Source: Selaginella moellendorffii (lineage: Eukaryota; Plantae; Lycopodiophyta). From it: DNA of 64,000 nucleotides. Position numbers and translations under genes: made by a program. Position 1 is the stretch's first letter. Each line of letters opens with the position of its first letter. This document shows, piece by piece, positions 3,001-31,380 of this stretch. A model generated the notes under the pieces. That model saw only the letters and a list, made by a program, of their open reading frames with translations, did not search any database and was not told the DNA's origin. The stretch spans positions 4,270,880 to 4,334,879 of the forward strand of contig NW_003314261.1 in assembly GCF_000143415.4 (NCBI RefSeq), read 5' to 3'.

Positions 3001-3066
3001 TTCTAGAGAACTCTCCTAGAACAGTATAGCACCAAGTTGAAATTCAACACAGCCTATCATAGACAG

Positions 3067-8986: not shown

Positions 8987-8997
8987 GCACCCCCTCC

Positions 8998-11539
8998 TCA
9001 AGAACGAGTGGAACGAGGATGTGAACGAGAACGAAGAGGAGGATGAGATGAGTGGCGAGGGATGGGAGATGGAGAAAAAGAATGAGGACTGGGACGAGAA
9101 GGATAGCGGCGGTGGAAGTCCTGAACAAGGTCAGGAGAATGAATCAGGTTGTCCGCAGGTTCCCAAGTGCGTTCCTCAGGTCCGTAACCCTTCCAGTCCA
9201 CCAGATAGTAGAGTTTAGATCGTGAAATCTTGGAATCAAGGATGTCCTGAACCTCGTACTCAGACCCATCCTCGAGCTGCACTGGTGGAGGTGGAGGAAT
9301 GACCCGATTTGGAATAGGACTGGGAATATAAGGCTCAAGGAGAGAGGAGTGAAAAATGGGGTGAATTTGATATGAGGAGGGAAGTGCAAGGCAATAGGTG
9401 ACAGGATTAATGATGGCAGTGATAGGGAAAGGACCAAGGCGTTTGAAATCGAGTTTTGGACAGGGCCTGGTGGTGGAGATATTTCGCCTGAGGAGCCAGA
9501 CTTTATCCCCGATATTGTAAGGGGGACAATCCTGACGATGGACATTGGCAAATGTTTTATGAGATTCCTGAGCACGATGGAGGTGGAAGGAGATGGAGTT
9601 GTGGATTTCCTGAAGGTTGGAGATAAATGATTCAGAGCGGGGATTTGAACGAGAGGATTCAGATGGAGAAGGAAGTGAGAGATTGAATCAGGGGTTTCGG
9701 CCAGAGTTCGCAAAGAAGGGGGAAACTCGAAGAGAGGAGTGAACAGAGTTGTTATAGGAGAACTCAGCAAGGGGAAGGATATCGAACCAGTTATCCTGAT
9801 GATAGTTGATGAAGCACCTCAAGAATTGTTCCAACGTCTGAATCGTTCGCTCGGACTGCCCATCAGTTTGAGGATGATATGCCGAAGAGAGGTTGGCCTT
9901 CACTCCAAGCAGCTGCAAAAACCGTTGCCAGAAATGAGAGATGAACTGAGGCCCCCGATCCGAAACCACATCTGTAGGAATCCCATGAAGTCGGAAAATT
10001 TCCCTGAATACCAGTTTTGCCATGTCCTCGCCCGAAAACTCCTTGGTACATGGCAAGAAGTGCGTCATCTTTGTGAAGCGATCCACCACGACTAAAATGC
10101 TGTTGAAGCCTCCAGAACTCGGAAGATCACTCAAGAAATCCATAGAGATGGATTCCCAAGGACCTGAAGGGACCGGAAGGGAACGAAGCAAACCTGAAGG
10201 AAGGTGGCGAGGTACCTTATTCCGGGCACAAGTGTCACAGGAGGTAACAAAAGCTTTGATGTAGTCGTCCATGTGAGGCCACCAAAAGTCCCGTGCAACT
10301 AGCTCATAGGTTTTCGCAATGCCGAAGTGACCAGCAGTCGGGCTATCGTGGCACGCCATCAGGATCAACCTTCGAGCATCACCTTCAGGAACGTAAAGCT
10401 GCTCCCCACGGTACAATAAGCCATCTAAGAACTCAAACTCGTAATTGATCTCCGCAGGCTGGAATTTCCGAGAATGGAAAGCGACCGGATGAAGTTCGTG
10501 ATCCGCTCCGAGTTGAGATAGCACAGCACCAATGGCAAAGTCGGAGGCGTCAGCCTCGATGAAGAAAGGTTGTGAGGAATCAGCATGGATCAAGACAGGA
10601 GCAGAACTGAAGGCCGCCTTGAGTGTGTCGAAGGCCTGCTGGGTAGCAGCAGACCAAGAGAAGGGAACATCCTTGCGAGTGAGATGTGTGAGAGGAAGGA
10701 CAATGTCAGAGTAGTGATCAATGAAGTTGCGGTAGAAGTTGGCGAAGCCAAGGAAAACCTGAACGTCTGACATTGATTGTGGAGGCTCCCATTCGAGAAT
10801 AGTCTTGACTTTAGCAGGATCCATCGTGATACCCTCAGGAGTGACAATGTACCCAAGGAACTCCACAGACTGCTGATCAAAGGAACATTTCTCAAGCTTC
10901 GCGTATAGGCCGTGTTCTCGCAGCTTCGCTAGCACCTTGCGAACATGTTCGTCATGCTCCTCCTGAGTTTTTGAGTAGATGAGGATGTCATCGAGGTAGA
11001 CGATCACCATCTGATCAAGAAACTCCCGAAAAACGTCGTTCGCCATGTGTTGGAAAACCGCTGGAGCATTTGTCAAGCCAAATGGCATGACAGTGTACTC
11101 GAAGTGGCCATAGCGGGTTCGGAACGCAGTCTTCCATTCATCACCAGGCCGGATCCGGATCAGGTTGTATGCTCCACGGAGGTCGATCTTGGTGAAGAAG
11201 CGGGCACCGCCGAGGCGTTCCAACAGGTCCGAGATCAGGGGCAGCGGATAACGGTTCCGAACAGTCACCTTGTTCAAACCTCGGTAGTCGATGACTAGCC
11301 GCAAGCTCCCATCCTTCTTCTTGACAAAGAAGACAGGTGCTCCAGCCGGGGACTGCGAATGCTGAATGTAGCCCGAGGCAAGGTTCTCATCCACGTACTC
11401 TTTGAGGGCCTTAAGCTCGGACGGGGATAACCCGTAGATAGGCCCCCACGGAGGTGATGCTCCTTCCTGTAAATCAATGGGACAATCATAAGGCCGATGA
11501 ACAGGCAGTACACTAGCTTTTTTCTTGTCAAACACATCC
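8998..11539 (-). pseudogene. pol: pol 3' part: RT, internally deleted RNase H, integrase, chromodomain
   Basis: YLDDIL, EADASDFAIG, HDSPTAGH..CDTC, SDRGPQF, HPQTDGQSE; CGA>TGA stop at 9688; chromodomain YEVQDILD..YLVDWKGY..TWEP. AEINYE joins directly to FEFLDGLLY, indicating a deletion of the RNase H C-terminal half. Confidence 0.93.
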
Positions 11540-12228
11540 AAGCTCTATTTCGTTAAAGTGGGATTTATTCAGTAAAATGGGACTAGGTACAAATTTTCAA
11601 GTATTTGAAAATGACGTGAAATTATATATTTTTTGTCCAGGGGCTAGACATATCTGGGGCATGGTGACTAGCGCGGTGACTTTGTGTCCAGACTGAGTCC
11701 ATCTGGTTGTATAAAAAATCTCATTGTCAAGGTGAACAAGCCGAATCTGAAGCTAAAGAAGAGCGATGGCATGCGCGCACACACTATTTGTTTGTTCATT
11801 GAACGTGTGGTGAGCTTTCCAAGATGAACGTCATTCCTATTAGCCAAACATATAACTTAATGGTGAGAACATTTAGATATTATTCAATGTTATCTTTTTC
11901 TAACGAATCTAATTGTGAAGGTGTAGCAAGAGGCATTGCTAGTCTGGAGAAGTCATTTAACTCATTTGACCCTTAGTGTATTTTCATGAAACTAAATAAC
12001 ATTCATATTATTAAGGAATTTCTCTAGTACCTTTTTTTTACGACATAGAGGCTTGCATTTCTTTCAAAGGTGATTTAGTAAAAGGCCTGAGGGCACATGC
12101 CATTCTATTTCTCAGACCGGTATTAAGATATACTAGTGCAAAGGGCCACATGCCATCACGCCTCCTCTGATTCAGATTCGGATTGTTCACCTTGAAATAA
12201 AATACATTAGAAACTTAGTAAAGGAATA

Positions 12229-15200
12229 TTAATGAATCTCACCTTGAACCCGGGTTATGAATGCTCTTGCTGCATCTCTTGCATGGTCTGGCAAGGTGAT
12301 GGTGGCACTCTGCTTCCGCATCCAACCATGCACAACATTATCCACCGATATGCTCATGCTGGGATCCCTTGGATTCAGCACCCATCTCTTTTCTAGGCAA
12401 TCCTTCGTATATCCGGAACTTGGCTTGAACCACTCCACAGTTACATTGAAGGAGTTAGTTTCCGCGTCCTCCTCTGCATCAGTGATGCAGCGCCCCACCC
12501 ATATCATTTGTTTTTTATTACTGGGTCTGACAAGCACGACCATTCCTTTGCAGACCTGTACTGGATTGAATGCTGAATCCGGCTTCTTGTTCCTCGGCCC
12601 ACAATAGTGATCCTCAACATCGTTATCTGTCACTGCATTTCCAGAGGACATTGTTCCGCTACTATCTGGTGCTCTGGGTTCTAGCCAAAAGGACTCTTCC
12701 AATTCTTCATATACAACCGGCCCATTTTGGATAGCAGATATAATCTTCTCCCAGTATTCGAGCAAAGGCTTGCACCTCTGAAAATAGGATTCTCCACCAA
12801 ACACCAACCCCCTCTTCCAGAAGGCAATATGCTGTCTAATCCCGGCCACTATACTTTCCTGGTCTTTGAGTCCATCCGGGTGCATCGGCCGTGGGGAACC
12901 CTGAGGAATCATAGGTTCCCCAGTTATGGGATCTCTCTTGAAGAGTTCAATGCCGTCCACTGGCAGCCACACTGTGTCCCATTCTCTCATCTTGTACCTC
13001 ATCACTGGAGCACCGTCACGCATGCTGAAATGAAACTGAAGAGGCTTGGAGTGGCCAATCAGCGTTTCGGATCCGTCCCTGATGTAGCCTCTTACAAACC
13101 CCTTAAAGTCTGGAACCTCTGTCACAAGTGCAGCTTCAACAGTGCCTTTGATGCAATTTTGGAATTCATCGTAGAGTTGTGGGAGGGTGAGGACATTGGA
13201 TTGCCGGAGGGACTCTGCCAGGTGACTGAACATGGCATCGACGTCTTCATGAGTGTGCCCAACCATGAGAAAGCCAAGTGTAACCGTTTCAAATATGCCT
13301 TTGGCAACAAGCATCGCCAAGTACGCGAAGACGTACATGTTTTTGTTCTCACTGCCAGCATTGTCTGTTTGGAGCAGAAGATGGGGTGGAAGGCCACATC
13401 GGCCAAAAGAACTTCCTTGAGATTCTGCTTCGTTTGGATGAGACTGTGCATTCACCGGGCGACCAGCCTCGTCGTAATGGCATGAGGCCTCACGTGATAA
13501 CCCTACAATCTGACGGCCAACATATTCACTGGGATGGCATGGGGCCCCACGCGATACTGCAAGCCTTTGCTCCTCCTCCAGCTGAACCCTGTATGGGGTT
13601 CGATCGACAAGGGCCTTATGCAAGGGTTGGCCGTTCAGCTCAGTCTGCGCACTTTGCAGAGACCTTAAGTGTTTTGCTAAGGACGCAATCATCATGTTTG
13701 CACCCCCGCCACCCCATAGAGGTACAAAGAAGTTCCCATAGTTCTGGGCACCATGCCCATGAGCGATTATGCCAAACAGAGACACAGGCAGCTGCATGGA
13801 TGAAGAGATTGCCTTGGGGGCAGGATTGAGTCGAGGTAAGCACGTCTTTTTCTGATCCATTTTGTCGTGGATGATGCAGAGGTAAGAATCAGGTCTCTCC
13901 ATGGAGAGAATCCTGTTATGATAATATGCAGTCCTGCAGCTTCTCTGCTCGATGTTGTGGTCGAGCCGCCTTCTAACCAACGTCTCTCGCTCTTGAGCGA
14001 TGCAAGAATTCTTTGACAAAGCCATTTTGATAGCAGTGCATTCGTCACACTTTGAAAAGCTGGAGTACTTTCCTATACTCACATCCCTGAACTTGTTGCT
14101 CCACAATCTACTAAATCTAGATTGGCTCAGCTTCATGTAGCCATTACTCTGGAGTTCCCAATTCACATCTTCCAATATGGCCCCCTTGGTATACATGGAA
14201 GGGAGAACTCGTTGGGTGTCTCGTGTTCCATCTTCCAAGAGGCGGGTTTTATGTGGTTGCTGCTCGCTACATGTCTCGACAAACCTCTTGAAGATTGCCT
14301 CTCCATATACAACATGACCCCTGGTTTTGTGCGTACCGTCGTTCCCATGGACTGCCTGTTGAACCCTTTGTTCCTCGAACTCAGTTTTGATTCTGTAGAA
14401 TGTGGTTCGAGGGACTCCATAAATGATTCTCCATGCCTTCATGCAGACCAAACCCCTCTGGAAGACCATGCCCCCCACCTGATGTTCTGAAGCATCAACA
14501 GATGACCGTAATGCCTCATACACAAAATTGCGAGCTGCCTTCCAGGACAATGTCTTGTATCTTGCTCTCTCCTCTTCAATAGCATCCCAATCAGCATGTT
14601 GACAGCACCTCCTCTTGCAACAAGCAACTGTCGAGACCATTCGAACCTCCATCGCCATTTTCTGCCTTTTCGGTTCGTTGCTCAGATCCCTTTGGCTGTG
14701 CTGTAGGAAGGTGTACTTTCTTTTCCCATGAAGAGATGTTCTGTCATCAGTTGTAGTGGTGTTTGATTGTGAATCCTTTACATTCTCAAACACTAAATGC
14801 CTCAATTTCCACCGCACAATGCTTCCAATAGTCAGACTGTTTTCTTCTGTGTCAACAACCTCTAAAATTGCAACTTCAATATCATCCCAGCCCAATTCTT
14901 GATTAGCAACCGCATCTCTTGGATCGACAACTGTGGCTAAGCCCTCAGCTACCACCTCCCCCTCGGGGTTGTTTAGAAACACCTTTGCCTGAATCCATGT
15001 AGCACGGTTCTTAAGATCCACGGAGGGAACATGCGTCGCACTTGCGCTGTCCCCAACATCTGCTTTCTTCTGCAGATTTTTCAAGGCAACAACAACATTT
15101 ACCCCGACGACCATCTCTCCTCGTTCAATAGCGACCACATTCCCATCGAAGACAGTCTCTACTGATACAGCAGCATTGCCTTCCCCAAGCCTTTGACAGT

Positions 15201-15297
15201 GTATAACAAAGTTCCGATCCATAGACACAAGGGTCCCTTTTGCAACTCTCTTCCCACCATTCAAAATGTAAACCTTTTCCCCAACCCTGAAGGCCAT
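12229..15297 (-). CDS. Intact 1022-aa DDD transposase (Sola1/DUF7869-like)
   Basis: HDKMDQKKTCLP, QTDNAGSENKN, FLMVGHTHEDVDAMFS; FSKCDEC...H zinc motif; uninterrupted ORF inside the TIRs. Confidence 0.9.
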   Translation of the reverse strand: MAFRVGEKVYILNGGKRVAKGTLVSMDRNFVIHCQRLGEGNAAVSVETVFDGNVVAIERGEMVVGVNVVVALKNLQKKADVGDSASATHVPSVDLKNRATWIQAKVFLNNPEGEVVAEGLATVVDPRDAVANQELGWDDIEVAILEVVDTEENSLTIGSIVRWKLRHLVFENVKDSQSNTTTTDDRTSLHGKRKYTFLQHSQRDLSNEPKRQKMAMEVRMVSTVACCKRRCCQHADWDAIEEERARYKTLSWKAARNFVYEALRSSVDASEHQVGGMVFQRGLVCMKAWRIIYGVPRTTFYRIKTEFEEQRVQQAVHGNDGTHKTRGHVVYGEAIFKRFVETCSEQQPHKTRLLEDGTRDTQRVLPSMYTKGAILEDVNWELQSNGYMKLSQSRFSRLWSNKFRDVSIGKYSSFSKCDECTAIKMALSKNSCIAQERETLVRRRLDHNIEQRSCRTAYYHNRILSMERPDSYLCIIHDKMDQKKTCLPRLNPAPKAISSSMQLPVSLFGIIAHGHGAQNYGNFFVPLWGGGGANMMIASLAKHLRSLQSAQTELNGQPLHKALVDRTPYRVQLEEEQRLAVSRGAPCHPSEYVGRQIVGLSREASCHYDEAGRPVNAQSHPNEAESQGSSFGRCGLPPHLLLQTDNAGSENKNMYVFAYLAMLVAKGIFETVTLGFLMVGHTHEDVDAMFSHLAESLRQSNVLTLPQLYDEFQNCIKGTVEAALVTEVPDFKGFVRGYIRDGSETLIGHSKPLQFHFSMRDGAPVMRYKMREWDTVWLPVDGIELFKRDPITGEPMIPQGSPRPMHPDGLKDQESIVAGIRQHIAFWKRGLVFGGESYFQRCKPLLEYWEKIISAIQNGPVVYEELEESFWLEPRAPDSSGTMSSGNAVTDNDVEDHYCGPRNKKPDSAFNPVQVCKGMVVLVRPSNKKQMIWVGRCITDAEEDAETNSFNVTVEWFKPSSGYTKDCLEKRWVLNPRDPSMSISVDNVVHGWMRKQSATITLPDHARDAARAFITRVQGEIH

Positions 15298-15659
15298 TCT
15301 GAAAGTGCAGAAAAGAAGTTAAGACCATACAAAAAATGATTGGAGAATGGCCTAAATCATAACATACCAAACAACCTCAATAGCATGAGGCCACATGCCA
15401 TTATTCAAACATGCTATTGACACCCACATGAAATTTCGCATTCACAAAATTGGCATGAGGCCTCATGCCATCTTGATATACACACAGCTGCAGGCAAGTA
15501 AAAACATACATGACAATACGCTAGCCATGAAATTGCAAGGGCCCAAGATGGCATGTAGCCTCATGCCATTTCTAAATGTGGTCCTAAACCATTCCATGGT
15601 GAACATACCAGGAAGCACAAGTGCCGAATATCAAGAGGAAGCGGTAGCCACACCAAAGA

Positions 15660-15760
15660 CAGTGCCGCTCGCAACACCGCAACTACTCGTAGCGCCGCTC
15701 GCAACACCGTAACTGCTCGTAGCGCCGCTCGCACAAACTGCCACTCGCATAAACTGCCGC
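15660..15760. repeat. GC-rich ~30-bp tandem repeats upstream of the transposase
   Basis: GCGCCGCTCGCAACACCGYAACTRCTCGTA repeated about 3 times. Confidence 0.7.
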
Positions 15761-16592
15761 TCGCAATGGCGCTCGCAATGCCGCAACCGCTTGTAGACGC
15801 ATAAACCACAGCTCACAACGCCGCTTACACAAGCAGCGCTCACTGCGCTCAGCGGAACCAAGAACACGGCGCACAAAAATGATAGACCTAGGAATGAGTT
15901 CGAGAATTCAAAAATAACACACGCTTGAACGTCACATCAAATCCTCTGACAAACCAGATCTTATGATTCCTCTGACAAATTTCAAACTGAGTAGCTTCTA
16001 GACTTTGCTGTCGGAGGTTGAACTTTGTCACATCATGTCCTTGCCTCGATCCAGCTGTGCCATGTCAGTGATTCGAACTTTGCCATGCCATGTCAGCGAT
16101 CCGCGCCAAGATTATTCGCCGTGTAAAGGAATAATTATGCTGTGTGTGTACGTCCATTTATGGCAATATAAGGCCACATGCCATTCAAAGAATAATGCTA
16201 GTCGAGCATTTTTTGGTGCATTTTTGGGTTCAAAATTGCATGAGCCCACACGCTATAAAGTTTACCTGTACCAAAAATAGAAACAGCTTTATTTACTTGG
16301 GAATTTATATGGTTGAGGCATTTTTAAACTTACAAACACATGCCCTACTTACATTCCTTTGGTTGCTTAAAATTCAAAAATATTATAAACCTTTCTTTTT
16401 GCATTTTCAATGTTTTCAATTATGGTTTTTGATTTTCGTAGGACCAGCCTAGTAATCTATTTGCATCCCGTCATGTTTATAGCTAGCTTTCGTTTGTCCC
16501 CTTCGCTAGCCTGAGATACATCTGCTCGGCATCTGCCTCTTACAGCATTTGCCCAGAAAGGGCATCTTTCTTCACGCAGCATTTGCCACATG

Positions 16593-16624
16593 TTTAGGGT
16601 TAGGGTTTAGGGTTTAGGGTTTAG
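16593..16624 (+). repeat. Interstitial plant telomere repeats (telo-box cluster)
   Basis: TTTAGGG TTAGGG TTTAGGG TTTAGGG TTTAG; also at 35830-35855 and degenerate at ~36700. Confidence 0.85.
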
Positions 16625-17875
16625 CAATTCAGTAGCTTGATAAACATGCAAATACAGAACTTGATGCAAAATCCTTGGATATGTCACAATGCCCCTAGGA
16701 CCATAAACACATTTCAATAGAGAGGGTCCTTTCATTTCATAACTCCTTACGTAGATCTTGGTGAAACCAGAGTTAGTGAAGTTGGTTTCTTGTGATCCCA
16801 CATCTGATTGTGATGTCCCTTTGCAGTGTCGATGGAAAGGTCAATGCACACCAAACTGTAGAATCTTGGAGCAAAATAACGGTCGGATCTATGGCAAATG
16901 CCCCTGAAACATTGTAAGGCTCGTGTGGTTTCATGTGGTGTCCGATCGAGATGCTTCTTTGCAGGGTCATCAAGAAGGACATTGTATACCATTCTGTAAA
17001 ATCTAGTTGCGATCTAACGGTTGGATCTCCAGGAAACTCAAAACAATCTCGCGCGACTCAGAATATTCTAGGAATATACTCCTATGTGCTCCTGAAAATG
17101 GCATGCGGCCCCACGCCATTCAAGAGATAACGCCAGATGACGCCGAGCATTTTTTGGTGCATTTTTTGGGATCAAAATTGCATGAGCCCACATGCTTGAA
17201 TGTCACATCAAATCCTCTGACAATTTATTTAGCTGAACATCTGGCATTTTTGGAAATACAAGATGCTTTGGAATATCCAATCATGCATGGTATAAATATA
17301 GCGAGGGTATTAAATGATATCCCAATCATAATCTTTCTTTTGGATTTCGCGTGCATGCAGTCCGAGGAATGATGACGTTGCGGATTTCTTTTGGATTTCA
17401 CGCATGCGCGCGCCGATCCAGAAATTAATGGTGGCGCCCAAGTCCGAGAAATGATGACGTGGCGGGATTACCAACCGTCGTGACATTTCGTGCGTGTGAG
17501 GTTAGGTTTTGCATTTTGCTTCGTACTCGCGCTCGCATCGCGCTCCCACTCGCGCTCGCATCGCGCTCCCACTCGCGCTCCCACTTCTCTACAGGTTTCT
17601 CGTGTGCATCGGCGTCCACTCGCGCTTGCATCACACTCGCGCTCGCATCGCGCTCGTGTGCATCGGCGTCCACTTCAAGACACACCCAGTTTGTAACTTC
17701 GCCGCCAACTCCGCCGCCCACTCCGCCACCCACACGCAGCCCACTTGGCGTCCCGGGAGATTTCAGCGCCACTCTCCAACTGTAAGTGGCAGAGTAGCCT
17801 TGCTGCTACGATCCGCTGCACACACAGTGCACATTCGCCAGCGAGTCCGGTTGTCACGCCTCCATTCGGCTTCAA

Positions 17876-20800
17876 ATGGTAAGTCTTTTAGGCCAAGTAG
17901 AAAATGGCATGAGGCCACATGCCATTCAGTAGCAACATTGGCATGCACCGATTGGGCTCTCGAGTGCAGTCCGGTTACAGATGGCGTGTAGCCTCACGCC
18001 ATCTTAGGATGCAGCCTCAAGACATCTGATGCAGTGGTGAATGGCGTGTGGCCTCACGTTATTTCCAGCTACTAGCTTTTCATCTGTCAGCTCTAATTGT
18101 TGTGCATTTCTGAACAGGCGAGGAATTGCGTTCTTCTTCCAGCCACTGTCAATGTGGATGCAGAGAAGGGGGAGGAGCTCACCAGTTGGACTTTCGGGAT
18201 GGAAGGCGAGGATCTGAGGCTGTACAACACAGATGGTGGGAGAAAAGAATGCATGGGGATCCTCATCCAAGTGACAGACACTCCATGCAGTTCCATGCAA
18301 GAATATGGACTGGCACTTGTGGTAGAGACAGCGTCTGCCTTCAAGATCCACCTTGCACATCCTAGCGGCTTCCCGGAGGGGGGCAGCGGCTATGAGGAAT
18401 TCCTAGAGGGAGCTAGGGAGAGGTTGTCCAGGAGGCCCACAATTTCAAAGACGCTGCGGGTCTATGAAGATCACATGGAATCCACGGATCTCACCTACGG
18501 CGATGTTCAAAAACTATATTCCAACATTGAGCCGTTGAGAGTGACTCCAGTTCGCAAAGCAAAGGGGAAGGGGGTCGATCTGGAAACTACCTCGAAGCAG
18601 AAAAGGGTGGTCAAGCTCAAGCCGACGTCCGACTCTCCTGCTCCAAAAAAGAAGCTACTCAGTGATGCCATTGCCTCGGGTTCGAACACTACACCCACCA
18701 AAAAGAAGAGCCGCAAAGAGCAGAAAGAGCAAGAAGAGGCAGCAAAAATCGTCGCAGATAATAGTACTTGTTACTATTCCAACAAAGTATATACAATCGA
18801 CGTGAGCCGTATCGACATCCAAAGCAAATACAACCACAGGCTAGTATCTGATGAGTGGGTGGAGAAATTGAAGCAGAAGATGCTGGCAAGTCCAGTAACA
18901 CCCGACATCGCAGACGTGATCCCCTACTACCAAAAAATGAAGGGCGAGATGAGGTTTCCAGACTTGATCAATAGGAAGGTGTTGGACGATCAGAACATCC
19001 GGTTCTATGCCGTCTCCGGGCAGCATTCTAGCTTGGCGATGCAAGAGATAGTTGTGGATATTATGGTGGGTGAGGAGGTGAAGAAAGTCTTCAAGACAAG
19101 AGTTGTCCGCCTGATAAAAGGCAACTCGCCCCTCCGATCTATCATATACATCTCCCACGCGCAGAATGTCAAGCAAGAAACGTGCTACAAATCGGGTCTG
19201 CACGAGACATTGGCACGAACACGGAAGCTCTGGGTTCAACTGAAGAAGCCACAAAAACCAGGACAAGGACGTGCACTAGCAACTAGCGCCTGGCAGGTAA
19301 GCCTCGTTGTATGTGGCATAGCATGTGGCCTCACGCCATTTCCATTGCAGGAATTCTCGAGTCTTCTCTCGAAAACACTGGGGGTCAATGACACACTCAG
19401 CATCCATAACATTCTACTCGCGACAAAAGTTGTTTTTGACAAATAGGTAGATGTGCTGAGGAGGTACCATGACGGGGAGTTGCCAAACTCAATGGGTGTG
19501 GAGGACGGCCGGAAGCCCAATGATTTGAAGCTGAACGCCTTGCGTTTCTCGCGGTCTCTAGACGACGACGACCTTCTGACAGTGGCTAATGCTCTTCTAC
19601 GTGGTGAGGTTGTCTTCAACAAGACCAAAATGACTCCCGGCCATATTGTGACATACAAGGACTTGTGCATGACTCTGAGAGCTCGTGCGCTATTGAAGGA
19701 TTGGATCTTCGAGCAAGTGGCCGTGGAGAGGGTGAGCATCGACACCACGCAAGAGATGATGGAAGCGCTGGAGTTGTCAAATGAAGACATCGACGAGTAC
19801 GTGAAGGGGGCCCCCAAGTTCATCGATCTGCTGCGGGATGCCACGAAAAGTAAAGCTGAGAAGTTGGATCAGTATCCAAATTTCATTAAGATTGATGTCG
19901 ACCGCCGGCTTCAGAAACAGCTCGACCCCGCAGCAGAGGCCTATCGAGAACCTTACCGGGTATACTTGAATTCGGATGAGGATCAAAGGTGGAGGAGCAT
20001 CGTTTCCCACGGAGATGAGCAGGTCAAGAACATCTTTTGTGTGATGGACTTCACAAACGAGGAGATCACTCATGTAGACGAAGTCAGCTCCATCATTGAC
20101 TTAATGGTGGGACTTGCGGAGGTGGAATCTTCAGTCCACTATATGATCTACGACTCCGAATCCTATCACAAGTTCTGGAAGGCCTTGAACGAGGTGAAGG
20201 CTCGGTTGAAAGGCAAGGAGATGCGGGAGATCCATGGGATAATGGTTAAGAAGAAGATACCGACGAATGTCCGCATCTTCACACTCGCCCTTGTTATTGG
20301 TCCTGCAGTAGAGTGGGACTGGAGTGACTTCCCAGCTTCGTTCGACAAGGCCAATCGAATTGATCTGAGGGAGGTCAATTTACCCGTGCCTGAGGAACTG
20401 AAGACGGCTATGGAGCTTTCGAATCCAAAGAAAGCTCCAGGTGTAGCATGGGAAATGCTCAGCTGGGTCTTCAACGCAATAGCGGGTGGGTCACCTGCTT
20501 CTGACTCCAAGGGCAAATGCGTTGTCGAGTACAACTGCGGCGGACTATTCTTTCGAGCCGCACTACTCAAGGGTGTCCCGTGTGTTGCGGTGACAAACTC
20601 CATTGAAGAGATGACTTCAATGGAGCATATAATTACAGTTGCCAAAGAAAAACAGTATCTTCTCTGCGAACCTGGTGAGTACGCACTTTAAGTTTAAATG
20701 TTATCTCACAAGCTCTGTATGCAGGAGCGTGGCCACCCCCAGATGCTGAAACGGTGTTAACAGCTACTGTTGAAGATACCCATGTTGGGCCGAGCTCACA

Positions 20801-23498
20801 ACCTGCACAAGGTAAGGTCACGTGAGGCCTCACGCCATTTTGATTATAGATCGTTGTGAATATTCAGACACGAGGACTGAAAAGCGCACTGGTGGCGCAT
20901 CGAAGAAGGACAAACAGAAAAGCAATAGGAAAAAAGGAGGTACAAATTATATTTGCAATGGCGTGTGGTCTCATGCCATTCCTTGCAGGAGAAACTTCTT
21001 CAAAGGCAAAACAGGCAAGCACCAGCCAAGCTCAAACTGACAGTGGTCATAAAAAGCGAAAGCACGTTGGACAGTCGTCGAGATCAAAGGCGTTTGATTC
21101 GAAAAGGAAGAAGGGCAACGAAAAGATGATAGGTAATGCCTCGCGGTTATGGCGTGTGTGCTCATGCCATTCATTGCAGATCAAGGGCTGAGTGAAAGCA
21201 GGCAGTCACCACCTCATGACTCAGATTCCTATGGCAGACTCCCCTTCCCCAATCTCAATGGAGAGGTACAATGGATGAGGGAAGCTTTTCAAGGCAGGGC
21301 CACGTTTTTCTCATCTCGTCGTCTTCGAAGGGTGCAAGAACGTGCAGAAACCATGTTAAGACAGTCGGGTGAGGATACGGTCCTAGGTCACGCACTAAAA
21401 CAGGCTATGGATGTCTTGTATTTTGAGATGGAGATTCGGCCAGATGATTTTCCCAAGATGGTCCTGGAAGAACAAGCCATCCAGCCTGAGCAGCCTATGG
21501 AAGAAATGCAGGAGGGGGATGAGGAGCCAGAGAAAGATAATGAGCAAGAAGAGCAGAAGGACGAAGAGGAGGACAAAGAAGAGGAGGACGAAGAAGAGGA
21601 GGACGAAGAGGACTTGGATGGTCCTCACAATGGTGACGATCACAATAACGACGACGACGATGATGACGACGATGGCCAGCCTGAGGTGGCCAAAGAGCGG
21701 CGGAGGAAGGTCATACAAGACAAACCATCAGGTAAATAATAATACATCCATTCCTAACCTTTTACCATTTCTAACATTGTCCATGTAGGTCGCAGAGCAA
21801 ATGGTAAGTAGAGATTATTCAGTTGAATTTACAAACTCTAGCCTTTAGTGTCGAGGAAGGATAGTGCCAAGCAAGGGTCGAAACGTATGTCCAATCCTTC
21901 AGAATCAGCAGTGCGCTCAAGTGATATCGGTCCTAGTTCCTCAATAGCAGTTGATGGTAAATACAGTATAGTCGATTCAATGTGCTAATGAGTTTGTTTT
22001 TAGTAGCACGGGAGGATACCATCTCAATCGAAGGGAGATATTTGGACATGCATATGGATCCGCCAGTGGACTCTACTTGGCTGCAAGAGTCATCAGAGCT
22101 GGTGGAGGCTACTATCCATATCAACGCCAAGCAAGCTGACCACGCTCCACTTGATGCTGCCCATACCACTGAGTCAATCTTGTCCACGTATCCAACTGAC
22201 GGTGACCAGGCGCCATTGGACCCACATGAGGCCGCCCCAGCCGCCGAGCCGGTCGTATCCTCATTTCCAACGGACTCAACGTGTGCCCAATCGTCTGACT
22301 ATGCGCCGTTGGAACCTCCCTACACCGCCCCTGCTGCCTGTTCGGTCATGTCCACTTTGCCAACGGAGGCACAAGCTGAAATGGCGTGTGATCACATGCC
22401 ATCGGAACCACCCCATGCCACTGTTGAGCCAGTTGTACCAGAGTCTACAGCTGAAATGGCATGTGCCCACACGCCATCGGATGCGATTGACCCCACATTG
22501 CAGAGGAGAGTATTTCCGCCCTTCACGTTTCCTCGACCAAAACCCTCTCAACGACCATCGGGAGCAACATTCGCTAATATTGTAGATGGTAAAATTGACT
22601 TGTACCATTTTTTATGCTGACGCATTTCATTTCAGAGTCACGGCGAAGGTACTGTATCGTTTTTGATCTGAACGGTGTCCTTTTCTCCCATGAGCGTGGC
22701 TCGTCCTCGAATGTCATTGCACCCTCCAAAGCCTGCGGTCGCAAGTTGGTCAAAAGAGACAGATTCACATTAATCACACGGGAGAAACTGCGGGATCTAA
22801 TAATGACCATGCGACACTTAAAACAGAGGGCCGGGTTCAATTTGCAATTGGGAGTTTAGACATCCATGATGCGCCACAATGCATTAACGTTGCTACAGAT
22901 GATGCACGATCAGACGCGAGTAATATTACCATTTGACTTTCTCCTAACACAGGAGGATTGCTTGACTATGGTCCATGTGAGGGGTAGCAAGCCCATCTTC
23001 GTCAAGCCAGAGGCTGTAGTGATGAACCGGACTGCTAGCTCAAGTGAAATCCTCATCATCGATGACTCGCCGATTAAAACTGCAGCGAACACGCACACAT
23101 ATGCAGTGCACCCCATCTCTTGCAGTATGGAAACTAGGGAGAAGAAACCGTATGTTCTGGGGGACCTTGCAAAACGGCTTGGAGCGATGGTGATAGAGAA
23201 CCGGCCAGTCCAGGAGGTGGCTGCAGAAATCAACCAAATGGCAGATGGAACGGTATATCAGAAGCCATTTGATCGGACAGACACCAGTCATCATTTATGG
23301 CATGTATATTGTCTAGCCAAGCACTATCCGTATCTCCATAATCTGCTCAACCGGATGGGTTCTTCGACCACTAAACATGAGCGTGGACGTATTAGAGAAG
23401 AGAGGGCATTACTATTGGGTTTAAATCCTGATAGTGTGGAGAGTGATGAAATTCCAAGATTATTGTATAGGCGTTGGAGGCAAAAAATAACAGTCTGA
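17876..23498 (+). CDS. Multi-exon transposon cargo gene: ParB/Srx-like + degenerate N4C/N6A MTase-like fold + acidic linker + FCP1/NIF HAD phosphatase-like (lesions in this copy)
   Basis: ATG|GTAAGT at 17876, intron 17879-18117 joins in frame to ARNCVL. Further GT-AG introns at 19297-19350, 20675-20724, 20812-20867, 20940-20988, 21133-21179, 21732-21788, 22589-22635 and others. Motifs AVSGQHS; KCVVEYNCGG..AALLKG; VFDLNGVL, IIDDSPIK. TAG stops at 19444 and 22857. Confidence 0.75.
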
Positions 23499-23940
23499 GA
23501 TGGCATGTATTTATTTAAAAATGTAACTTATTATGGCATGGGGTTCCATGCAATTGTATTAATATTAAAAGACAATTCTTTGAGAGGATTTGCATTATAC
23601 TAGAAGTGTTACAGCATGTTATTGGAAGTCTACGAAGTTGTTTTATTAATAATGGGAAAGTAAAGATTGAATGGGGACTTGGGCTCCACCTAGACTCGGA
23701 GCAACTGAGCCAATATTAAAAGGATGGAAAGAAATTGGACGACGATGACAAGGAGAAGAGAGAGGTGAAGCAGTGGCAGGGGGAGGAGAAGTGATTGAGT
23801 AGACATTTCCTTGTTTAAAATAAAATGGCATGTGCCTCAATGCAGTTGAATTTTGTTATATTTATATACTATATAAAGGTTTGGAAACCTTATTTTACAA
23901 GTGGGATAATGACAATTCCCACTTTAACGAAATAAAGCTT

Positions 23941-24710
23941 ATCCCCAAAATCATGATACTTCTCAGGAAGACTGACAGGAGAAACATGCAAAGCAAAAAG
24001 AAAAAAAGGTTCTTCATGAAGGAGTTCTTTCATAGTGATTGTGGAGATAGGAGGAGGGGTACGACTAAATGGAATGATGAGATGAGGATACTGTCCAGTG
24101 TAAGATGGAAGAGAGGAAAAAGAAGAGGATGAAAACTGCGTAGAGTCAGGAACAGAACCCCGACTTGAGTTTAGGGAACTTTTCCTGATTCGGACTCGAT
24201 GAACACCAGGGGAAGCCGTGGGAGATGGTGATGTGGGAGAGATGAGCTGTAAGTCCTTCCAACAAATCTGAGGCTGATGTAGTTGGAACCAAGGAAGACC
24301 GAGCACCACAAAGGAAGACTTGCTGTTGATGATGTTGAAGGCGATATCGGTGACGGTGGACCCGATGTGTACTCGAACGGGCAACGTTTCCCTAAGTCCA
24401 GAAGATGGAGACACAAAATGCCCGCCGATGCCTTCAACCCTCAGATCCCGTATGGTAGGAGAAAGAGGAACGTGATGTCGGGCAGCAAAGTCTGTGTCCA
24501 TGAAGCAGGAAGTTGCACCCGAGTCCAGTAGCGCCAAAGCCTTGAGTCCTGATTGTCCGGTGAAAGAAAGGAGACATGGGACACGGAAGTTGCGGGAATT
24601 GGTGGTGGCTTTGATGAAAGGTGGTGAGGAGCTTGATAAGGAAGAAAAGTGATTTTTATTTGGGGAGTCCAAACAGACAGCTCCTACTCTGTTTGGACAG
24701 GGTCGTTTCC
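23941..24710 (-). pseudogene. pol: pol 5' part (aspartic protease) of chromovirus
   Basis: ALLDSGATSCFMD...VVLGLPW; continues into RT after removing the DNA transposon. Confidence 0.9.
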
Positions 24711-24711
24711 C
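24667..24711 (-). promoter_or_regulatory. -1 ribosomal frameshift signal (G GGA AAC + 11-bp stem)
   Basis: Gag frame TCG GGA AAC, pol in -1 frame (GGG AAA CGA); downstream stem GTCCAAACAGA/TCTGTTTGGAC. Confidence 0.85.
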
Positions 24712-25658
24712 GACTGCAACAGAAGTGGACTCTGAGGCAGAGTGAACTCGAGCAATCGGGGAGGCTTCCTGGGACACACAGCTGCTTTGTGATTAGGATC
24801 AGCACAGTAGAGGCAAAGATTATGAGATATTCGACGTTGCCTCTCAGCAGGACTCAACTTCCCTCTAATGAGTCGAGGAGTACCAGAAATATCCATCGGG
24901 ACCGGAGTAGTAGGTTCAGGACTATGCCCCGAAGACTCAAGCTGGGATTCCTGAGTCTGGGACGGAAAAACAGCGGCGCGGCGACTTTCCTGACGACGTT
25001 CAAAGAGACGATTGTCACATCGAACAGCTTTGTTGATGGCGTCCGACAGGTCCTTGGGATCCTCCATGGTGAGCAACAAATCCTTGACACCGTTGTTGAG
25101 GCCGAAACGAAATTGGTCAATCAGGGCCCACTCATCCCACTGAGTGTCCAAGGCAAGGAGTTGGAACTCTGCAGCGTAGATCGAGGTAGGACGAGACCCC
25201 TGAGAGAGACCTCTCATCTTTGTGGTAGCAGCCCGAACCTGATCCGTCTCTCCAAAACATGCTTCGAGCTTCTCTTTGAACAATTGAAGATCCGTCAGCT
25301 CCGGAACCACGACCCCTTTCATGCTCTTCTCCAGAAGAGGAGAAAACCATGACAAAGCTGCACCCTCGAGCAACGTCCCAATCGCGCCGATTTGAGACTC
25401 GGGAGTGGGGTACCACCGATGTTGAAGTGCAAAGATCAGCTCCATTTGGTTCAAAAATCCACGAATCTCCGAACGCTTGCCTGAAAATTTCGCCGGGAAA
25501 CTCACCTTCGGTTCAGGAACTTTGCTGGATCCTTGAGCCGAAAGTAAAGCAAGCTCCTGCTGCATGCGAAGAAGGGTCGCCTTCAGCTCGGTATTCTCAG
25601 ACTGGATTTTTGCAAGGACTTCGGCAAAGAAATCAGGATGGCTTGGAGACTCCATTGG
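24684..25658 (-). CDS. gag: Gag of chromovirus (PEG10/Tcn1-like capsid + CCHC knuckle)
   Basis: PAKFSG, QFRFGLNNGVKD, PVPMDIS, CLYCADPNHKAAVC; first ATG (MESPSH) taken as start. Confidence 0.9.
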   Translation of the reverse strand, partial: PMESPSHPDFFAEVLAKIQSENTELKATLLRMQQELALLSAQGSSKVPEPKVSFPAKFSGKRSEIRGFLNQMELIFALQHRWYPTPESQIGAIGTLLEGAALSWFSPLLEKSMKGVVVPELTDLQLFKEKLEACFGETDQVRAATTKMRGLSQGSRPTSIYAAEFQLLALDTQWDEWALIDQFRFGLNNGVKDLLLTMEDPKDLSDAINKAVRCDNRLFERRQESRRAAVFPSQTQESQLESSGHSPEPTTPVPMDISGTPRLIRGKLSPAERQRRISHNLCLYCADPNHKAAVCPRKPPRLLEFTLPQSPLLLQSGNDPVQTE

Positions 25659-25736
25659 CAAGAAGAAAGAAAAGAAAAGGGGGAAAAAGACAAAGGCAAT
25701 CAAATAATCAAAATGAGCTAAAAGAAAAGCAAAAAA

Positions 25737-25752
25737 CCACAATCTGAATCAA
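25737..25752 (-). promoter_or_regulatory. Self-priming-type PBS complementary to the R region of the LTR
   Basis: 16-nt perfect inverted match to 25845-25860, which lies just downstream of TATATATA (25882-25889) in element orientation. Confidence 0.85.
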
Positions 25753-25754
25753 AC

Positions 25755-26089
25755 TGTCAAGACCCCCAACAAGATCAAGACTGGAAAATGCTAAAGACAA
25801 AGAGAAAAAGCTAGTGAAAACAAAGAAGAAGCCTTAGACTGGTGTTGATTCAGATTGTGGAGAAATGGAACAAGGCTAACCTATATATACTATAGGTTGA
25901 TGAAGCTCCACCACTCTTGGATCGAGGACGGCCTAAATACAGCTGAGGTCGAGGAGGCACCACATCATCATCAGGAATGTGACTCGAGACTCAGGAATCG
26001 GGAAGTGTCTCGAGAGTCAGGAATGTGGTCTGCAGGTCAGGAATCCGGCGAGAGTCAGGAATGTGGCAAGAATTGGGGGATTCCTGACA
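25755..26089 (-). repeat. 5' LTR of chromovirus
   Basis: Matches 8612-8986. Confidence 0.95.
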
Positions 26090-27994
26090 GATTGTTGCTT
26101 GAGTTAGTTCTGATAGATTTGGATGTTATTTCCTTTGGGTGATACATTCGCGAGCATTGTGCTTGTCAATCAATAATACTTTGTGTTCTTTGAGTTATCT
26201 TTGGTAAGTTGTTTGACATACTGTTTACAACCTTCGGTATTTAAGTTTTATCATTGCGTTTCCTTGATGATAAACTAGCTATTGAATTTTGTAGAATGGT
26301 CAATCCTCTATTTACCAACTATAGTGATTTTGGTGGTTCCTATACTGTAATACTGGTTTATCGGATAATAACTTACTTGGAATACTTTTGTGTTCTAACC
26401 TAAGCTTTATTCATTGTTAATTAAATCTTTAAGATATCATTGTCTAACTTTGATATAGTCCATATATTAATCTTTGAGTTTGGGCCAGTATAGGCAGACT
26501 GGCTTCGGCACTTCGTGTGCATGTTGAAATCTCTAGTCATGGAGTAACTACTGTCGACTAGTCACATAACCCGCCTCTTTATCGATGTTCTTTATTCTGT
26601 TCAAAGGGCGTGGCCGTGTAAACAACTCTAACTGCCTGTTGATAGTAGTCTATCTAAACCTTACTGACAGGTCTGGTTTCTTTGCTCAAGAGGGTTGGGG
26701 CCTCTAGCTTCTCTCTCTATGTCCTTGTGGGCAGGGGCATATCACACTTTTGTAGCTGGGTGACACCCAGAGCAGCAAGGGTGGTTGACTCCGTTGGTCA
26801 TTTCCTTGTCGGTAACGACCGGAAGGTGTCTGAGCTGGTAGCGCCTCTGCGTTAGACAAAGAGGTTGCCCCGTAACTCATTTAAGTTGGTGCATTTCTCA
26901 CATAGTGTGAATCCCGTGAAATTTTTCTAGAGTTGTTTCCTTGGCGGTATTCTAGACTCAAGTATGCATCGACGAGGACGTTGATTTTCCCCAAGGGGGG
27001 GAGAGTGTCGCGAATATGACTTCGGGTATCAAAAGTTACCTATCGACTAGTCCTTACAGACACTCTTTCCTTACTGCCATGACGGCAGGAGGTCGGTATT
27101 GCTGGACTTGTTATCAGTCTCTACCTAAGCTAGTTGAGAAACTGGTCCTCGCGTGTGCACTTGACTAGATGAGCATAAGGAAGGAATTCCTAAGTGTCTA
27201 TTTAGTCAAGCATACTTGACCTGGTTAGAGAAACTCATTCATTGACTTGCACTTGCTAGTGTTGGGAACCCTTGCAATATTGAGATTGGTCCCTCAATAT
27301 TCGATAAATGATAGCTTACCGTGTCTGCCAAACACCCTCATTATCATGCCCTTTGTGTTAGTCTCAATTCAGTCTCAAATGCTAATTATGGAAAGTGTCT
27401 ACATTTGCTCATTTGGCATATCTACATAATGTAGAGATTGGCCTGAACATAATGATGTTCGTTGTAGTGGCCAATAACGAGCCCGTATAACAAAGTGAGG
27501 CAGAACACGTGGAGGGATGACTCGGCAAGGAGATCTGATGTGGCGGGGAGGGGTTTGTTATAGAGGATCGGGCGGCAGATCAGCGGGGGACTTCTTGGGA
27601 TGCAGCAGGGTAGCGATAAAGGACATGGCGGGAGCTAGGGCTGGGGGGAGGATGGGCTTGGGAACGGCGTGACGAGCAAGGGCAATCAAGATCTGAGCAC
27701 AATAAGGGCTTTGACCTAGTGTGGAATCCAATAAGCCTCGCCTAGGCTTACGCCCATTTTATGGTGGAGATGAGGGGCAACTCATCACATCTAGGCCAGG
27801 CATACTAGAGCCTTTTCAATTCCATTTCTGGCATGACTAAAATTTTGAACATGAGGGCTTGCGTAGTAACATGCCTGTGTGGAGGACACACATGGCCAAA
27901 AGGACTTTCTTGGCTAGGACAGCCAGTGTGACCAAGAGGTTTGGTCACAAGGCATGGCATCCAAAGGTTGGAGCCACCATACATCCAGCCAAGG

Positions 27995-28190: not shown

Positions 28191-28513
28191 ACGTGCTTGG
28201 GCCATGGCACCTTTCTCGTCTGGCATGAACTGAAAGCATGGCATCTTCGCTGTCATGAGGACGGGCATCTGGCCACGAAGGGGACTCAAATGCTCCACTC
28301 CGCTCTGGGAAAGGGAGGATGCGTCTGACCGGCTGTCTGAAGAACCACGAGTGGAGGCGACCACTGAGAGGCTGCTGGAGAATGCTGACGTTGCACTCTT
28401 GAAGGACCCCCAGGTCACACGGCGATTAGTAGTAGCGGAAATGCTACAACGAGAAAGGAGCTTTTCTACCCAGAAGTTTCAGCTATTTCAGAAATTTTGG
28501 CTAGGCTGTCGCA

Positions 28514-29035
28514 ATGCATTTCTCCGAGAGTGATTGGATAGCATGCTGCGGCAGCTCCAAATTCGCCAAAGAGATGGCCAAGGTCAGGCCTTTCAAGAAT
28601 CTCACCAAGGCGATCGAGATGTCGCGGCAGATATGGTGGAATCAGGTGGATGTTCCTGGATGGCTAGAAGCTTTTAGAGCTCATCTAAGGATTGGAGTGC
28701 TCAGCAGCAAGTCCACAATAGACTGGTGTGCCGAGGAGCAAGCTACAGCATTGAGCAGTGCAAATGATCGAGCACTCAAGGATCTAGCCGAGTGGAATCA
28801 GCTCTACGAATCAAAAAAATTTGGCTTCGTGTTCCTTGTTTGTGCAACTGGAAAGAGTAGCTCAGAAATTTTGCAGTTTCTCAAGGGACAAATCACAAAT
28901 AGACTCTTGGTTGAGCTCCAAGTTGCTGCAAACGAACAACAAAAGATCACAAAACTACAGTTGTCAAAGCTCGTCTCACAGAACACTGCTCCTAGCGGTG
29001 ACAAGAACACTTCCAAGTTGAGCCTTTTGGAGTAG
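28514..29035 (+). pseudogene. TTL: Intronless OHCU decarboxylase domain of the plant TTL (allantoin synthase) gene, lacking the HIU hydrolase half
   Basis: DWIACCGSSKFAKEM, WLEAFRAH, EQATA, LAEWNQLY..KFGFVFLVCATGKS, ELQVAANEQQKITKLQL match the plant TTL N-terminal domain. Confidence 0.88.
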
Positions 29036-29519: not shown

Positions 29520-30409
29520 GACTACAAGGGGAAACGCGTGGAAGCGTCTCCATTTTATCGGGGGGAAGAACCGCTATAGCTATAGCAGCCAATAACGAGC
29601 CCGTATAACAAAGTGAGGCAGAACATGTGGAGGGATGACTCAGCAAGGAGATCTGACGTGGCAGGGAGGGGTTTGTTATAGAGGATCGAGCGGCAGATCA
29701 GCAGGGGACTTCTTGGGATGCAGCAGGGCAGTGATAAAAAGCTCTATTTCGTTAAAGTAGGATTTATTCAGTAAAATGGGACTAGGTACAAATTTTCAAG
29801 TATTTGAAAATGATATGATACTTTCGTGAAATTATATGTTTTTTGTCCAGGGGCTAGACATATCTGGGGCATGGTGACTAGCGCGGTGACTTTGTGTCCA
29901 GATTGAGTCCATCTGGTTGTATAATAAATCTCATTGGCAAGGTGAACAAGCCGAATCTGAAGCTAAAGAAGAGCGATGGCATGCGCGCACACACTATTTG
30001 TTTGTTCATTGAGCGTGTGGTGAGCTTTCCAAGATGAACGTCATTCCTATTAGCCAGACATATAACTTAATGGTGAGAACATTTAGATATTATTCAATGT
30101 TATCTTTTTCTAACGAATTTAATTGTGAAGGTGTAGCAAGAGACATTGCTAGTCTGGAGAAGTCATTTAACTCATTTGACCCTTAGTGTATTTTCATGAA
30201 ACTAAATAACATTCATATTATTAAGGAATTTCTCTTGTACCTTTTTTTTACGACATAGAGGCTTGCATTTCTTTCAAAGGTGATTTAGTAAAAGGCCTGA
30301 GGGCACATGCCATTCTATTTCTCAGACCGGTATTAAGATATACTAGTGCAAAGGGAAAAAGGTATTTGGTGATCAAGTAAATGGCATGAGGGCACACGCC
30401 ATTATAAGC

Positions 30410-30667
30410 CTAAGCGCTAGTGGACACCTCCTTTTTGGTACTCTCAGCGGTACTATCATCCTTCTCCGGGTCAGTTGTTTTGCTTTGGATTGTTGTCTTT
30501 AACGTTACTGAGGCGTTTTTGATAGTTGTTAATATTGCCGTTTGTTCAGAAAAATGATCACCTGGAGTATAGTACGGGGAGTTTAGAAGACTTATATATT
30601 CTACATCTTCACCTATCTCCTTCTTCGTCTCCTTTTCTGCCTCACTTACAGATTTTGTGCTTGCCAT
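30410..30667 (-). CDS. Small 85-aa hypothetical ORF present only in transposon copy 2
   Basis: MASTKSVSEAEKETKKEIGEDVEY...; protein-like composition, flanked by palindromes; no recognised domain. Confidence 0.35.
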   Translation of the reverse strand: MASTKSVSEAEKETKKEIGEDVEYISLLNSPYYTPGDHFSEQTAILTTIKNASVTLKTTIQSKTTDPEKDDSTAESTKKEVSTSA

Positions 30668-31380
30668 GAGAATGCTCTTCACCCTAAAATATGGAGTTTG
30701 TTGTGTTATAAAAGGAAACCAACACACACGCTGCAAGGGAATGATGGTACATAAAGCACGTAAGCCTACAATATGGGTTTATGTGCCATTAATATGGGCC
30801 ACATGCCATATTATTAGATTTATGCACGTGTGATTGGTAAATGCATATGTCACATCATCTTTGTTTTACCTCACACACTATATCAGGCCTAATGAACCAT
30901 ATCACATGTGCGCACATGCTATATATATGGAGAAGTATTATGCAAGGATAGAAAAATTCAATGCATGATTGTGGAGAGCAATGGCATGAAGCCACATGCT
31001 AAATAACATTTTAGAGAAAGAATTAAAATAGAAACATGCAAATAGTACTGAGTGGACCAAGACTTAGAAGTGCACAATTGAATGAGGTATTTCTAATAAA
31101 TATTTCACTCACCTCATATAGGAATGGCTACCACTCTCAAATGGCATATCGCCTCATGCCATCACCACGCAATTTGTTATAACAATCCGATGAATTCATA
31201 TTCGGCTTGTTCACCTTGAACTTTAAGTAAGATTTGCTAGAACAACTAAGAATTTATACTTGTTATTTGTATCATCTCACCTAGGAATGGCGTAAGGCCA
31301 CATGCCATCACGCCTCCTCTGATTCAGATTCGGATTGTTCACCTTGAAATAAAATACATTAGAAACTTAGTAAAGGAATA

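Follow-up and report, generated by a model that had tools for sequence, protein, structure and literature searches.

What kind of gene lies at positions 17876–23498 of a 64,000-nucleotide stretch of the Selaginella moellendorffii genome (assembly GCF_000143415.4, contig NW_003314261.1, positions 4,270,880 to 4,334,879; hereafter the window, whose own numbering is used throughout), and what could it do there? The first-pass annotation had joined scattered open reading frames (ORFs) into one fusion protein with ParB-like, methyltransferase-like, acidic and C-terminal domain (CTD)-phosphatase-like parts. The locus is the second gene of a 12.4-kb DNA transposon with terminal inverted repeats (TIRs), and two copies of this transposon are present in the window. 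The transposon context, a divergent transposase gene and a dispersed palindrome had been overlooked in that annotation. By analogy with known systems, the encoded accessory protein is tentatively proposed, at somewhat below an even chance, to be a trans-acting, sequence-specific helper that would bind as a dimer to the palindromes of its own element and counter silencing.

Copy 1 of the transposon spans 11540–23940 (12,401 bp) and copy 2 spans 29739–44524 (14,786 bp). Both carry the same TIRs of 27–28 bp at either end; those of copy 1, about 27 bp long, lie at 11540–11566 on the forward strand and at 23914–23940 on the reverse strand. The two insertions have different 4-bp target-site duplications (TSDs), ATCC for copy 1 and TAAA for copy 2, and an empty-site paralogue of copy 2 near 27620 contains the tetramer TAAA once. 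Copy 1 is inserted in a Gypsy long terminal repeat (LTR) retrotransposon of the chromovirus type (8612–26091, reverse strand), which encodes gag, protease, reverse transcriptase, integrase and a chromodomain and is flanked by the TSD GATTG. The LTRs of this host element are near-identical, with 2 mismatches in 324 aligned positions and three indels, and copy 1 differs from a contig of its own family at 27 listed sites across 2 kb. A young host element combined with 27 differences makes it likely that copy 1 is an older, already damaged copy that recently moved into the Gypsy element. Both transposon copies are in decay and diverge from each other by 2.6%. Their differences reach 12% in the CG context, 7% in CHG and 2% in CHH. 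Plant DNA methylation is expected to leave such a concentration at CG and CHG, and the element is probably a methylation target.

The 20-bp palindrome TGGCRTG-N6-CAYGCCA is dispersed through the element. With at most one mismatch, it was found 34 times in the window, 13 times in copy 1 and 21 times in copy 2 and never elsewhere, against a mean of 0.05 after shuffling. A looser pattern gave 44 matches, all 44 within the two copies. The pattern was derived from the same sites, and its confinement to the element is therefore a stronger point than the count. The looser sites of copy 1 extend over 12083–23553, with examples at 15451, 15549, 17099, 17905, 17982, 19319, 20959, 21150, 22382, 22457 and 23534; 14 of the 18 are non-coding, compared with 35.5% of the element (p 3e-4). 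These non-coding sites are located in introns of both genes, in the intergenic region and in the left subterminal region. The palindromes cluster near promoters and in introns, not at the element ends, and the TIRs are without the motif. A constant spacer of 6 bp separates the half-sites (13 and 21 sites in the two copies, versus no more than 2 at any other spacer), and positions 8 and 13 pair in only 11 of 26 sites. Such a spacer with poor inner pairing is more in keeping with a dimer site on DNA than with an RNA hairpin. The hairpin reading was rejected, and Rfam gave no match in copy 1.

The accessory gene of copy 1 (17876–23498, forward strand) consists of 11 exons and 1,643 codons, with two premature stops. 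The exons are 17876–17878 (the ATG alone), 18118–19296, 19351–20674, 20725–20811, 20868–20939, 20989–21132, 21180–21731, 21789–21803, 21849–21956, 22004–22588 and 22636–23498. All ten introns are GT-AG, they are intact in both copies, and introns 3–10 are all in phase 1. The spliced frame contains 2 stops, against 83 and 93 in the other two spliced frames and 56–93 in the three unspliced frames, a control that is partly circular, the splice junctions having been chosen by eye. Independent support comes from a Selaginella homologue that aligns across intron 2 minus its 18 codons, and from the metagenome loci L003 and L004, both of which are interrupted by a GT-AG intron at this codon. The counterpart in copy 2 (37753–44082, forward strand) has extra micro-exons, five premature stops and one frameshift. 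It is longer by about 700 nt through extra phase-1 micro-exons of 81, 37, 87, 36, 108, 90 and 108 nt at 40863–41730, the 37-nt exon breaking the frame. The short form of copy 1 joins two of the copy 2 micro-exons at a 4-bp microhomology, and the family contig over this site has the shorter form of copy 1, without the extra exons.

The first-pass annotation had described most lesions of the two copies as complementary. This stands for six of the seven lesion sites in the shared coding sequence, which are private to one copy: the stop at 22857 in copy 1, whose exon 11 is open in copy 2 (43219–44082), and four stops and a 1-bp deletion in copy 2. It fails for the seventh, the stop at 19444, which is common to both copies. 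At this codon the homologues have Trp, and family contigs at a depth of 74–98, from two runs of one sample, have no stop, so the family likely includes an open form of the gene. Of the 27 differences between copy 1 and the family contig, copy 2 shares the stop at 19444 and no other, and this stop lies in a low-rate context (2.7%); these two facts favour descent or conversion over a double origin, though the micro-exon content of the copies is unlike. The pN/pS ratio (non-synonymous over synonymous differences) between the copies is 0.62 for the accessory gene and 0.98 for the transposase, and copy 1 differs from the family contig by 22 non-synonymous and 4 synonymous changes. These values are read as showing decay and as carrying little information on past selection.

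A full HMMER protein search returned 20 matches, none better than 4e-10, of which 17 were kept; P0008, P0010 and P0014 were left out as repetitive, unrelated proteins. The named homologues are from S. moellendorffii, Calypogeia fissa and Riccia sorocarpa (examples being EFJ30523.1, CAM6105388.1 and KAL3675584.1, respectively), and the remainder are unnamed assembly proteins. The R. sorocarpa protein P0034 is annotated as one chain of 1,064 aa with a ParB-like motif, an N6_N4_Mtase match and an NIF match, and the metagenome contig L004 has the same domain order at about 25% identity. With ten GT-AG introns in both copies, the single chain of P0034 and the order in L004, the one-gene fusion model is supported. 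One of the five metagenome loci, L005, was a bacterial false match. Word-index searches left exon 2 and the HAD exon without a match among longer proteins and turned up P0004 alone for the methyltransferase alignment. The ParB part had no relatives in viral contigs, and the methyltransferase ORF of L004 had none in phage records.

The related loci carry a palindrome of their own. In L004, the 22-bp palindrome GGCTYRAACTTAAGTTYRAGCC occurs nine times and was not seen in any of 200 shuffles; all these sites lie in an upstream tandem array of about 100-bp units or in the intron region. L003, which was not used in defining GGCTYRAACTTAAGTTYRAGCC, has two such sites in the conserved intron. Neither palindrome was found in the other lineage, and neither in L001 (1.6 kb) or L002 (1.2 kb), which are mostly coding. 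Each half-site of both palindromes varies between CpG and TpG/CpA.

Further repeats accompany these sites. The upstream array in L004 (1–900) holds several palindromes besides the 22-bp one. The intergenic region of copy 2 contains an inverted repeat with 96-bp arms and zero spacer (34636–34827), with a palindrome at either end, which is absent from copy 1. Copy 2 further contains local duplications (about 36419–37092) and about 940 extra bases at 30355–31296, with more palindromes inside.

The predicted protein begins with a beta-rich region (18118–18540, forward strand, as for all domains below), which is conserved in relatives and modelled mostly at a predicted local distance difference test (pLDDT) score below 60. 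A ParB/Srx-fold domain follows at 18769–19188. In the alignment-based structure model of exon 2, residues ~200–360 mostly have pLDDT 59–94. VIA-align of this model recovered the ParB/Srx fold: the best matches were PadC (Z 9.9, root-mean-square deviation 3.0 over 99 residues), KorB (9.2) and a Pnob8-like ParB-N (8.8), and the top eight, at Z 9.9–6.3, comprise ParB, KorB, PadC, sulfiredoxin, SerK, SbnI and Atu1540, the next being at Z 4.1. SerK, SbnI and Atu1540 are here assumed to be of the ParB/Srx type. The top ParB-type structural matches include the DNA-site binders Noc, KorB and ParB. Foldseek against PDB agreed weakly (best Noc, 1.1e-3; none at E ≤0.001), and a viral structure library gave three phage ParB/GmrSD-type matches at E up to 0.001. 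A ParB/Srx-type fold in the exon 2 product is supported by these structure comparisons. The arginine motif of ParB CTPases is GxxR. SGQHS occupies its place here, and among the 18 motif-bearing sequences of a 19-sequence alignment the arginine position is Ser in 17 and Thr in one. Downstream, a conserved, probably helical region (19351–19947) contains the stop at 19444.

A language-model search with the ParB-like part gave similarities of 0.96 to unnamed sponge and mollusc clusters, 0.95 to DUF3723 and 0.92 to ParB_N. The sponge and mollusc clusters are nearest to 18757–19296 and hint at related ParB-like domains in animals.

The beta-class N6/N4 methyltransferase-like domain (19948–20660) is identified with weaker support. 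Its motif order matches the beta class, with the S-adenosylmethionine (SAM)-binding motif near the C-terminus. The family profile matched residues 169–269 of M.RsrI with an E of 0.0014, a score equalled by an unrelated designed protein, an Atlas lead scored 0.85, and the N6_N4_Mtase match of P0034 (E 5.8e-4) is below the Pfam cut-off. Amino-methyltransferases carry the motifs D/N/S-P-P-Y/F and FxGxG. The former is absent from all five covering sequences, where the DPPY-type motif is reduced to its first Asp, and the SAM loop is partly kept and deviates from FxGxG. A low-complexity linker of about 510 aa (20725–22588), encoded by phase-1 exons, changes from K/R-rich through D/E-rich to P/S-rich. 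The NIF/FCP1-like HAD domain and C-terminal tail (22636–23498) bear the motifs DLNGV and IIDDSP. Pfam NIF was matched above cut-off in copy 2 (E 1.4e-5), L004 (E 2.1e-16) and P0034 (E 1.9e-5). The catalytic motif of FCP1/SCP is DxDx(T/V). Both copies and L004 have DLNGV (DxN) instead, which makes CTD-phosphatase catalysis doubtful.

In the window ORFs and the 20 HMMER matches, Pfam recovered neither a ParB nor a methyltransferase family, PHROGs gave no useful match, and the PDB sequence search had no hit for the read-through protein, the ParB profile or the HAD domain. All three domain calls of the first-pass annotation survived testing. Its description of a prokaryote- or phage-type pair joined to a eukaryotic phosphatase holds for the domain order, with a correction: the catalytic motifs look degenerate across the family, and the ParB-like, methyltransferase-like and phosphatase-like domains are probably not working enzymes.

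The transposase ORF (12229–15297, reverse strand; 1,022 aa) points away from the accessory gene and is stop-free in copy 1, and its counterpart in copy 2 is broken by four stops and a 2-bp deletion. It matches Pfam DUF7869 (E 3.7e-42) and, weakly, Transposase_23 at its N-terminus (E 0.0027). A candidate DDD triad was picked out by eye from known motifs. No match was found in the PDB sequence search, and no relatives in viral contigs or in the prokaryote genomes searched. The extra terminal regions of the ORF (12232–12633 and 14740–15297) comprise two similar N-terminal stretches and a C-terminal region.

By its TSD and candidate triad the transposon fits a Sola-like assignment, the superfamily having been compared through published descriptions only. 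In the available parts of the sources, Sola elements have a 4-bp TSD and a DDD transposase (PMC10741241), their TIRs measure 11–1124 bp, and they occur in moss (PMC10741241, PMC9033089), whereas Mutator TSDs are 7–12 bp (PMC10741241). TIR length and element size here are inside the Sola ranges reported in those parts. The same passages mention neither a second gene nor internal palindromes, unlike the element described here (PMC10741241, PMC9033089). The literature found on Sola in moss consisted of reviews and surveys.

ParB, Noc and KorB bind palindromic DNA sites. In the proposal favoured here, the ParB-like fold and the helical region would recognize the palindrome in the same way, with the accessory protein bound as a dimer. 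The methyltransferase-like domain, its catalysis lost, might bind or shield DNA at half-sites in both CpG and TpG/CpA form, and the NIF/FCP1-like domain and acidic linker might engage RNA polymerase II or chromatin factors. Binding of such a helper would keep the element unsilenced, and intact copies elsewhere in the genome would supply it to decayed ones like the two described here. The recent move of copy 1 despite its broken cargo fits supply in trans.

Several observations weigh against this proposal. Transposases are able to bind their own elements and activate them unaided, according to the accessible text of one report (10.64898/2026.08.24.746577). A single-sequence model spanning the helical region reached a pLDDT of 32, and no DNA-binding helix-turn-helix was resolved. 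The element is not clearly richer in CpG than the neighbouring Gypsy DNA. L004 shows no transposase match in 7.5 kb, and the link between cargo and transposase rests on a single family. Many palindromes lie in short introns of duplicated micro-exons, and passive duplication may partly explain their number. In two raw RNA runs of one study, about 12% of each being read, 198 and 120 reads matched, nearly all on one 40-bp piece and none across predicted junctions.

That piece (17779–17818), about 60–100 bp upstream of the accessory ATG and present also in copy 2, drew hundreds of RNA reads with foreign flanks. It presumably resembles the 3′ end of large-subunit ribosomal RNA, which Rfam did not confirm. 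Run X13 gave no matching reads. In run X2, one 59-nt contig at depth 4 joins 18045 to 18118 across GT..AG borders, with 29 nt on its short side; the acceptor is the predicted one, the donor is not, and the contig was set aside as too weak to count as splice evidence.

The closest known counterpart of the proposed helper is the VANDAL/VANC system of Arabidopsis, whose accessory protein targets short intronic and intergenic motifs that vary among related elements, as far as the accessible part of the report describes (PMC5735166). Both systems combine a TIR transposon and an accessory gene with element-specific non-coding motifs, tandem arrays and turnover between lineages. VANDAL is Mutator-like and the VANC motif is a 9-bp non-palindromic one, whereas the element here has a 4-bp TSD, short TIRs and a palindrome of 20–22 bp. 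Anti-silencing has been demonstrated for VANC; for the present protein, built from ParB-, methyltransferase- and FCP1-like parts, it is proposed by analogy. No VANC-type Pfam match was found in the window ORFs, the HMMER matches or P0034.

The protein could instead have a mechanical role, loading on and bridging palindromes as ParB does on parS and thereby joining the short TIRs 12 kb apart for the transposase, which we regard as unlikely. The ParB-type fold and sites along the whole element would suit it, but a CTP clamp is doubtful where the arginine of the GxxR motif has given way to Ser in 17 and Thr in one of 18 sequences. The TIRs are just about 27 bp long, and maize TnpA is an accessory factor needed for transposition, as the same partly available report describes (10.64898/2026.08.24.746577). 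The location of sites near promoters and introns rather than element ends speaks against bridging, and the FCP1-like domain is left without an explanation.

To the same low degree of probability, the palindromes could be sites of the transposase or of a host factor, the cargo being a passenger or serving some different end, for instance target choice or germline timing. The transposase does have extra N- and C-terminal regions and the weak Transposase_23 match, both copies moved or persisted with broken cargo, and the AtMu1 transposase alone activates cognate copies, according to the accessible text (10.64898/2026.08.24.746577). Yet the TIRs, which are the usual transposase sites, are without the motif, the palindromes of L003 and L004 lie inside introns of the cargo gene and in the upstream array, and the four-part architecture has been retained at about 25% identity.

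It is still less probable that the domain is an active, ParB-guided methyltransferase with an unusual site, writing N4-methylcytosine (4mC) or N6-methyladenine as a protective mark. The motif D/N/S-P-P-Y/F is found in 0 of 5 sequences and the SAM loop is unlike FxGxG, even though M.RsrI is the best sequence match of the family profile (E 0.0014) and all five retain the first Asp together with part of the SAM loop. Working prokaryotic-type 4mC methyltransferases in Marchantia (10.1101/2021.02.12.428880) and the activation of DNA-modifying enzymes by phage ParB-like proteins (PMC13229309), each described in the available portion of its source, speak for such a writer. Finally, it is hardly credible that the fusion is an artefact of joining separate genes or decayed fragments by eye: no spliced transcript was seen in the two RNA runs and most database homologues cover one part alone, but both copies retain working-form splice sites, the parts are not separated by any start or promoter gap, P0034 carries all three domains in one annotated chain, L004 agrees in order and intron, and many short homologues end at the conserved intron, as expected from splicing-blind gene calls.

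Whichever function applies, the parts have recognizable counterparts. The accessory protein shares the ParB/Srx fold and nearby palindromic DNA sites with ParB, Noc and KorB; from these proteins and from phage ParB-methyltransferase loci it differs by an identity of about 10–19%, the replaced arginine motif, the lost methyltransferase motif and a eukaryotic gene that is rich in introns and extended by an acidic linker and an NIF domain. With FCP1/SCP CTD phosphatases it shares the NIF match, with DxN in place of DxDxT. Phage ParB-like proteins partner DNA-modifying enzymes, and phage loci have, as here, a ParB fold followed by a beta-class amino-methyltransferase-like domain, in the available parts of two sources (PMC4738411, PMC13229309). 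This pairing offers an origin and suggests, by analogy, that the ParB-methyltransferase pair may derive from a phage-type locus. The eukaryotic ParB-HTH Dam fusion of chlorophytes and chytrids belongs to another methyltransferase group, according to the accessible text (PMC4738411). Marchantia MpDN4MT1 likewise represents a prokaryote-type amino-methyltransferase fold in a non-seed land plant; it is an active host gene with intact TSPPY, the passages available contain no ParB term, and it is likened by description (10.1101/2021.02.12.428880). Fungal Starships also have a conserved accessory gene, DUF3723, in a eukaryotic mobile element; they use a tyrosine recombinase, as far as the accessible text goes (10.1101/2021.12.13.472469), and the link to DUF3723 is the language-model similarity of 0.95 without alignment. 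Pfam DUF3723 was not matched in the window ORFs or the 20 HMMER matches.

A wider version of the proposal, which we consider rather improbable, would be that transposons of non-seed land plants use a parS-ParB-like self-recognition: a ParB/pseudo-methyltransferase/CTD-phosphatase-like protein of phage ParB-methylase descent would co-evolve with its own 20–22-bp palindrome, tolerate methylation and activate its own family only, and the related ParB-like domains in mobile elements of animals and fungi, including Starship DUF3723, would be the same device. If true, a phage-type ParB-methylase module has been reused as a plant chromatin tool, and a fold is suggested for the Starship accessory family DUF3723.

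The accessory gene, carried by a plant transposon of Sola-like type that has a lineage-specific palindrome, is real and apparently undescribed so far. In the literature searched, nothing named DUF7869 or linked DUF3723 with ParB, and among the papers listed no transposon with ParB/CTPase or ParB-methyltransferase was found by title and start of abstract; the search did not extend to Repbase, to most subscription papers or to the supplementary files of PMC12973397 and PMC4738411, which might list the family. Sequence-specific anti-silencing by transposons is known from a few flowering-plant cases, and a recent survey, in its available part, confines the evidence to context-specific cases (PMC12973397). 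As each of the two lineages offers its own matched protein and palindrome, specificity is testable by a simple swap. Even if the protein is merely uncharacterized cargo, the element is an undescribed two-gene, Sola-like transposon with a recent move.

Other features of the window were also recorded. A short telomere-like run of TTTAGGG/TTAGGG units lies in the intergenic region of copy 1 (16594–16624). The homologues, the CHG signal and a TTTAGGG run each point to a non-seed land plant as the likely host. Between the copies, an ORF at 28505–29035 has an OHCU decarboxylase domain (E 4e-24) and probably belongs to a host gene. Gypsy pol is present as two decayed copies, at 650–3643 and 56550–58574, which are in opposite orientation and 90% alike. 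Several related blocks of 11–12-bp and 6-bp tandem units, of the GAGATGGAGTCC and GAGACC types, occupy 47880–55822 in both orientations.

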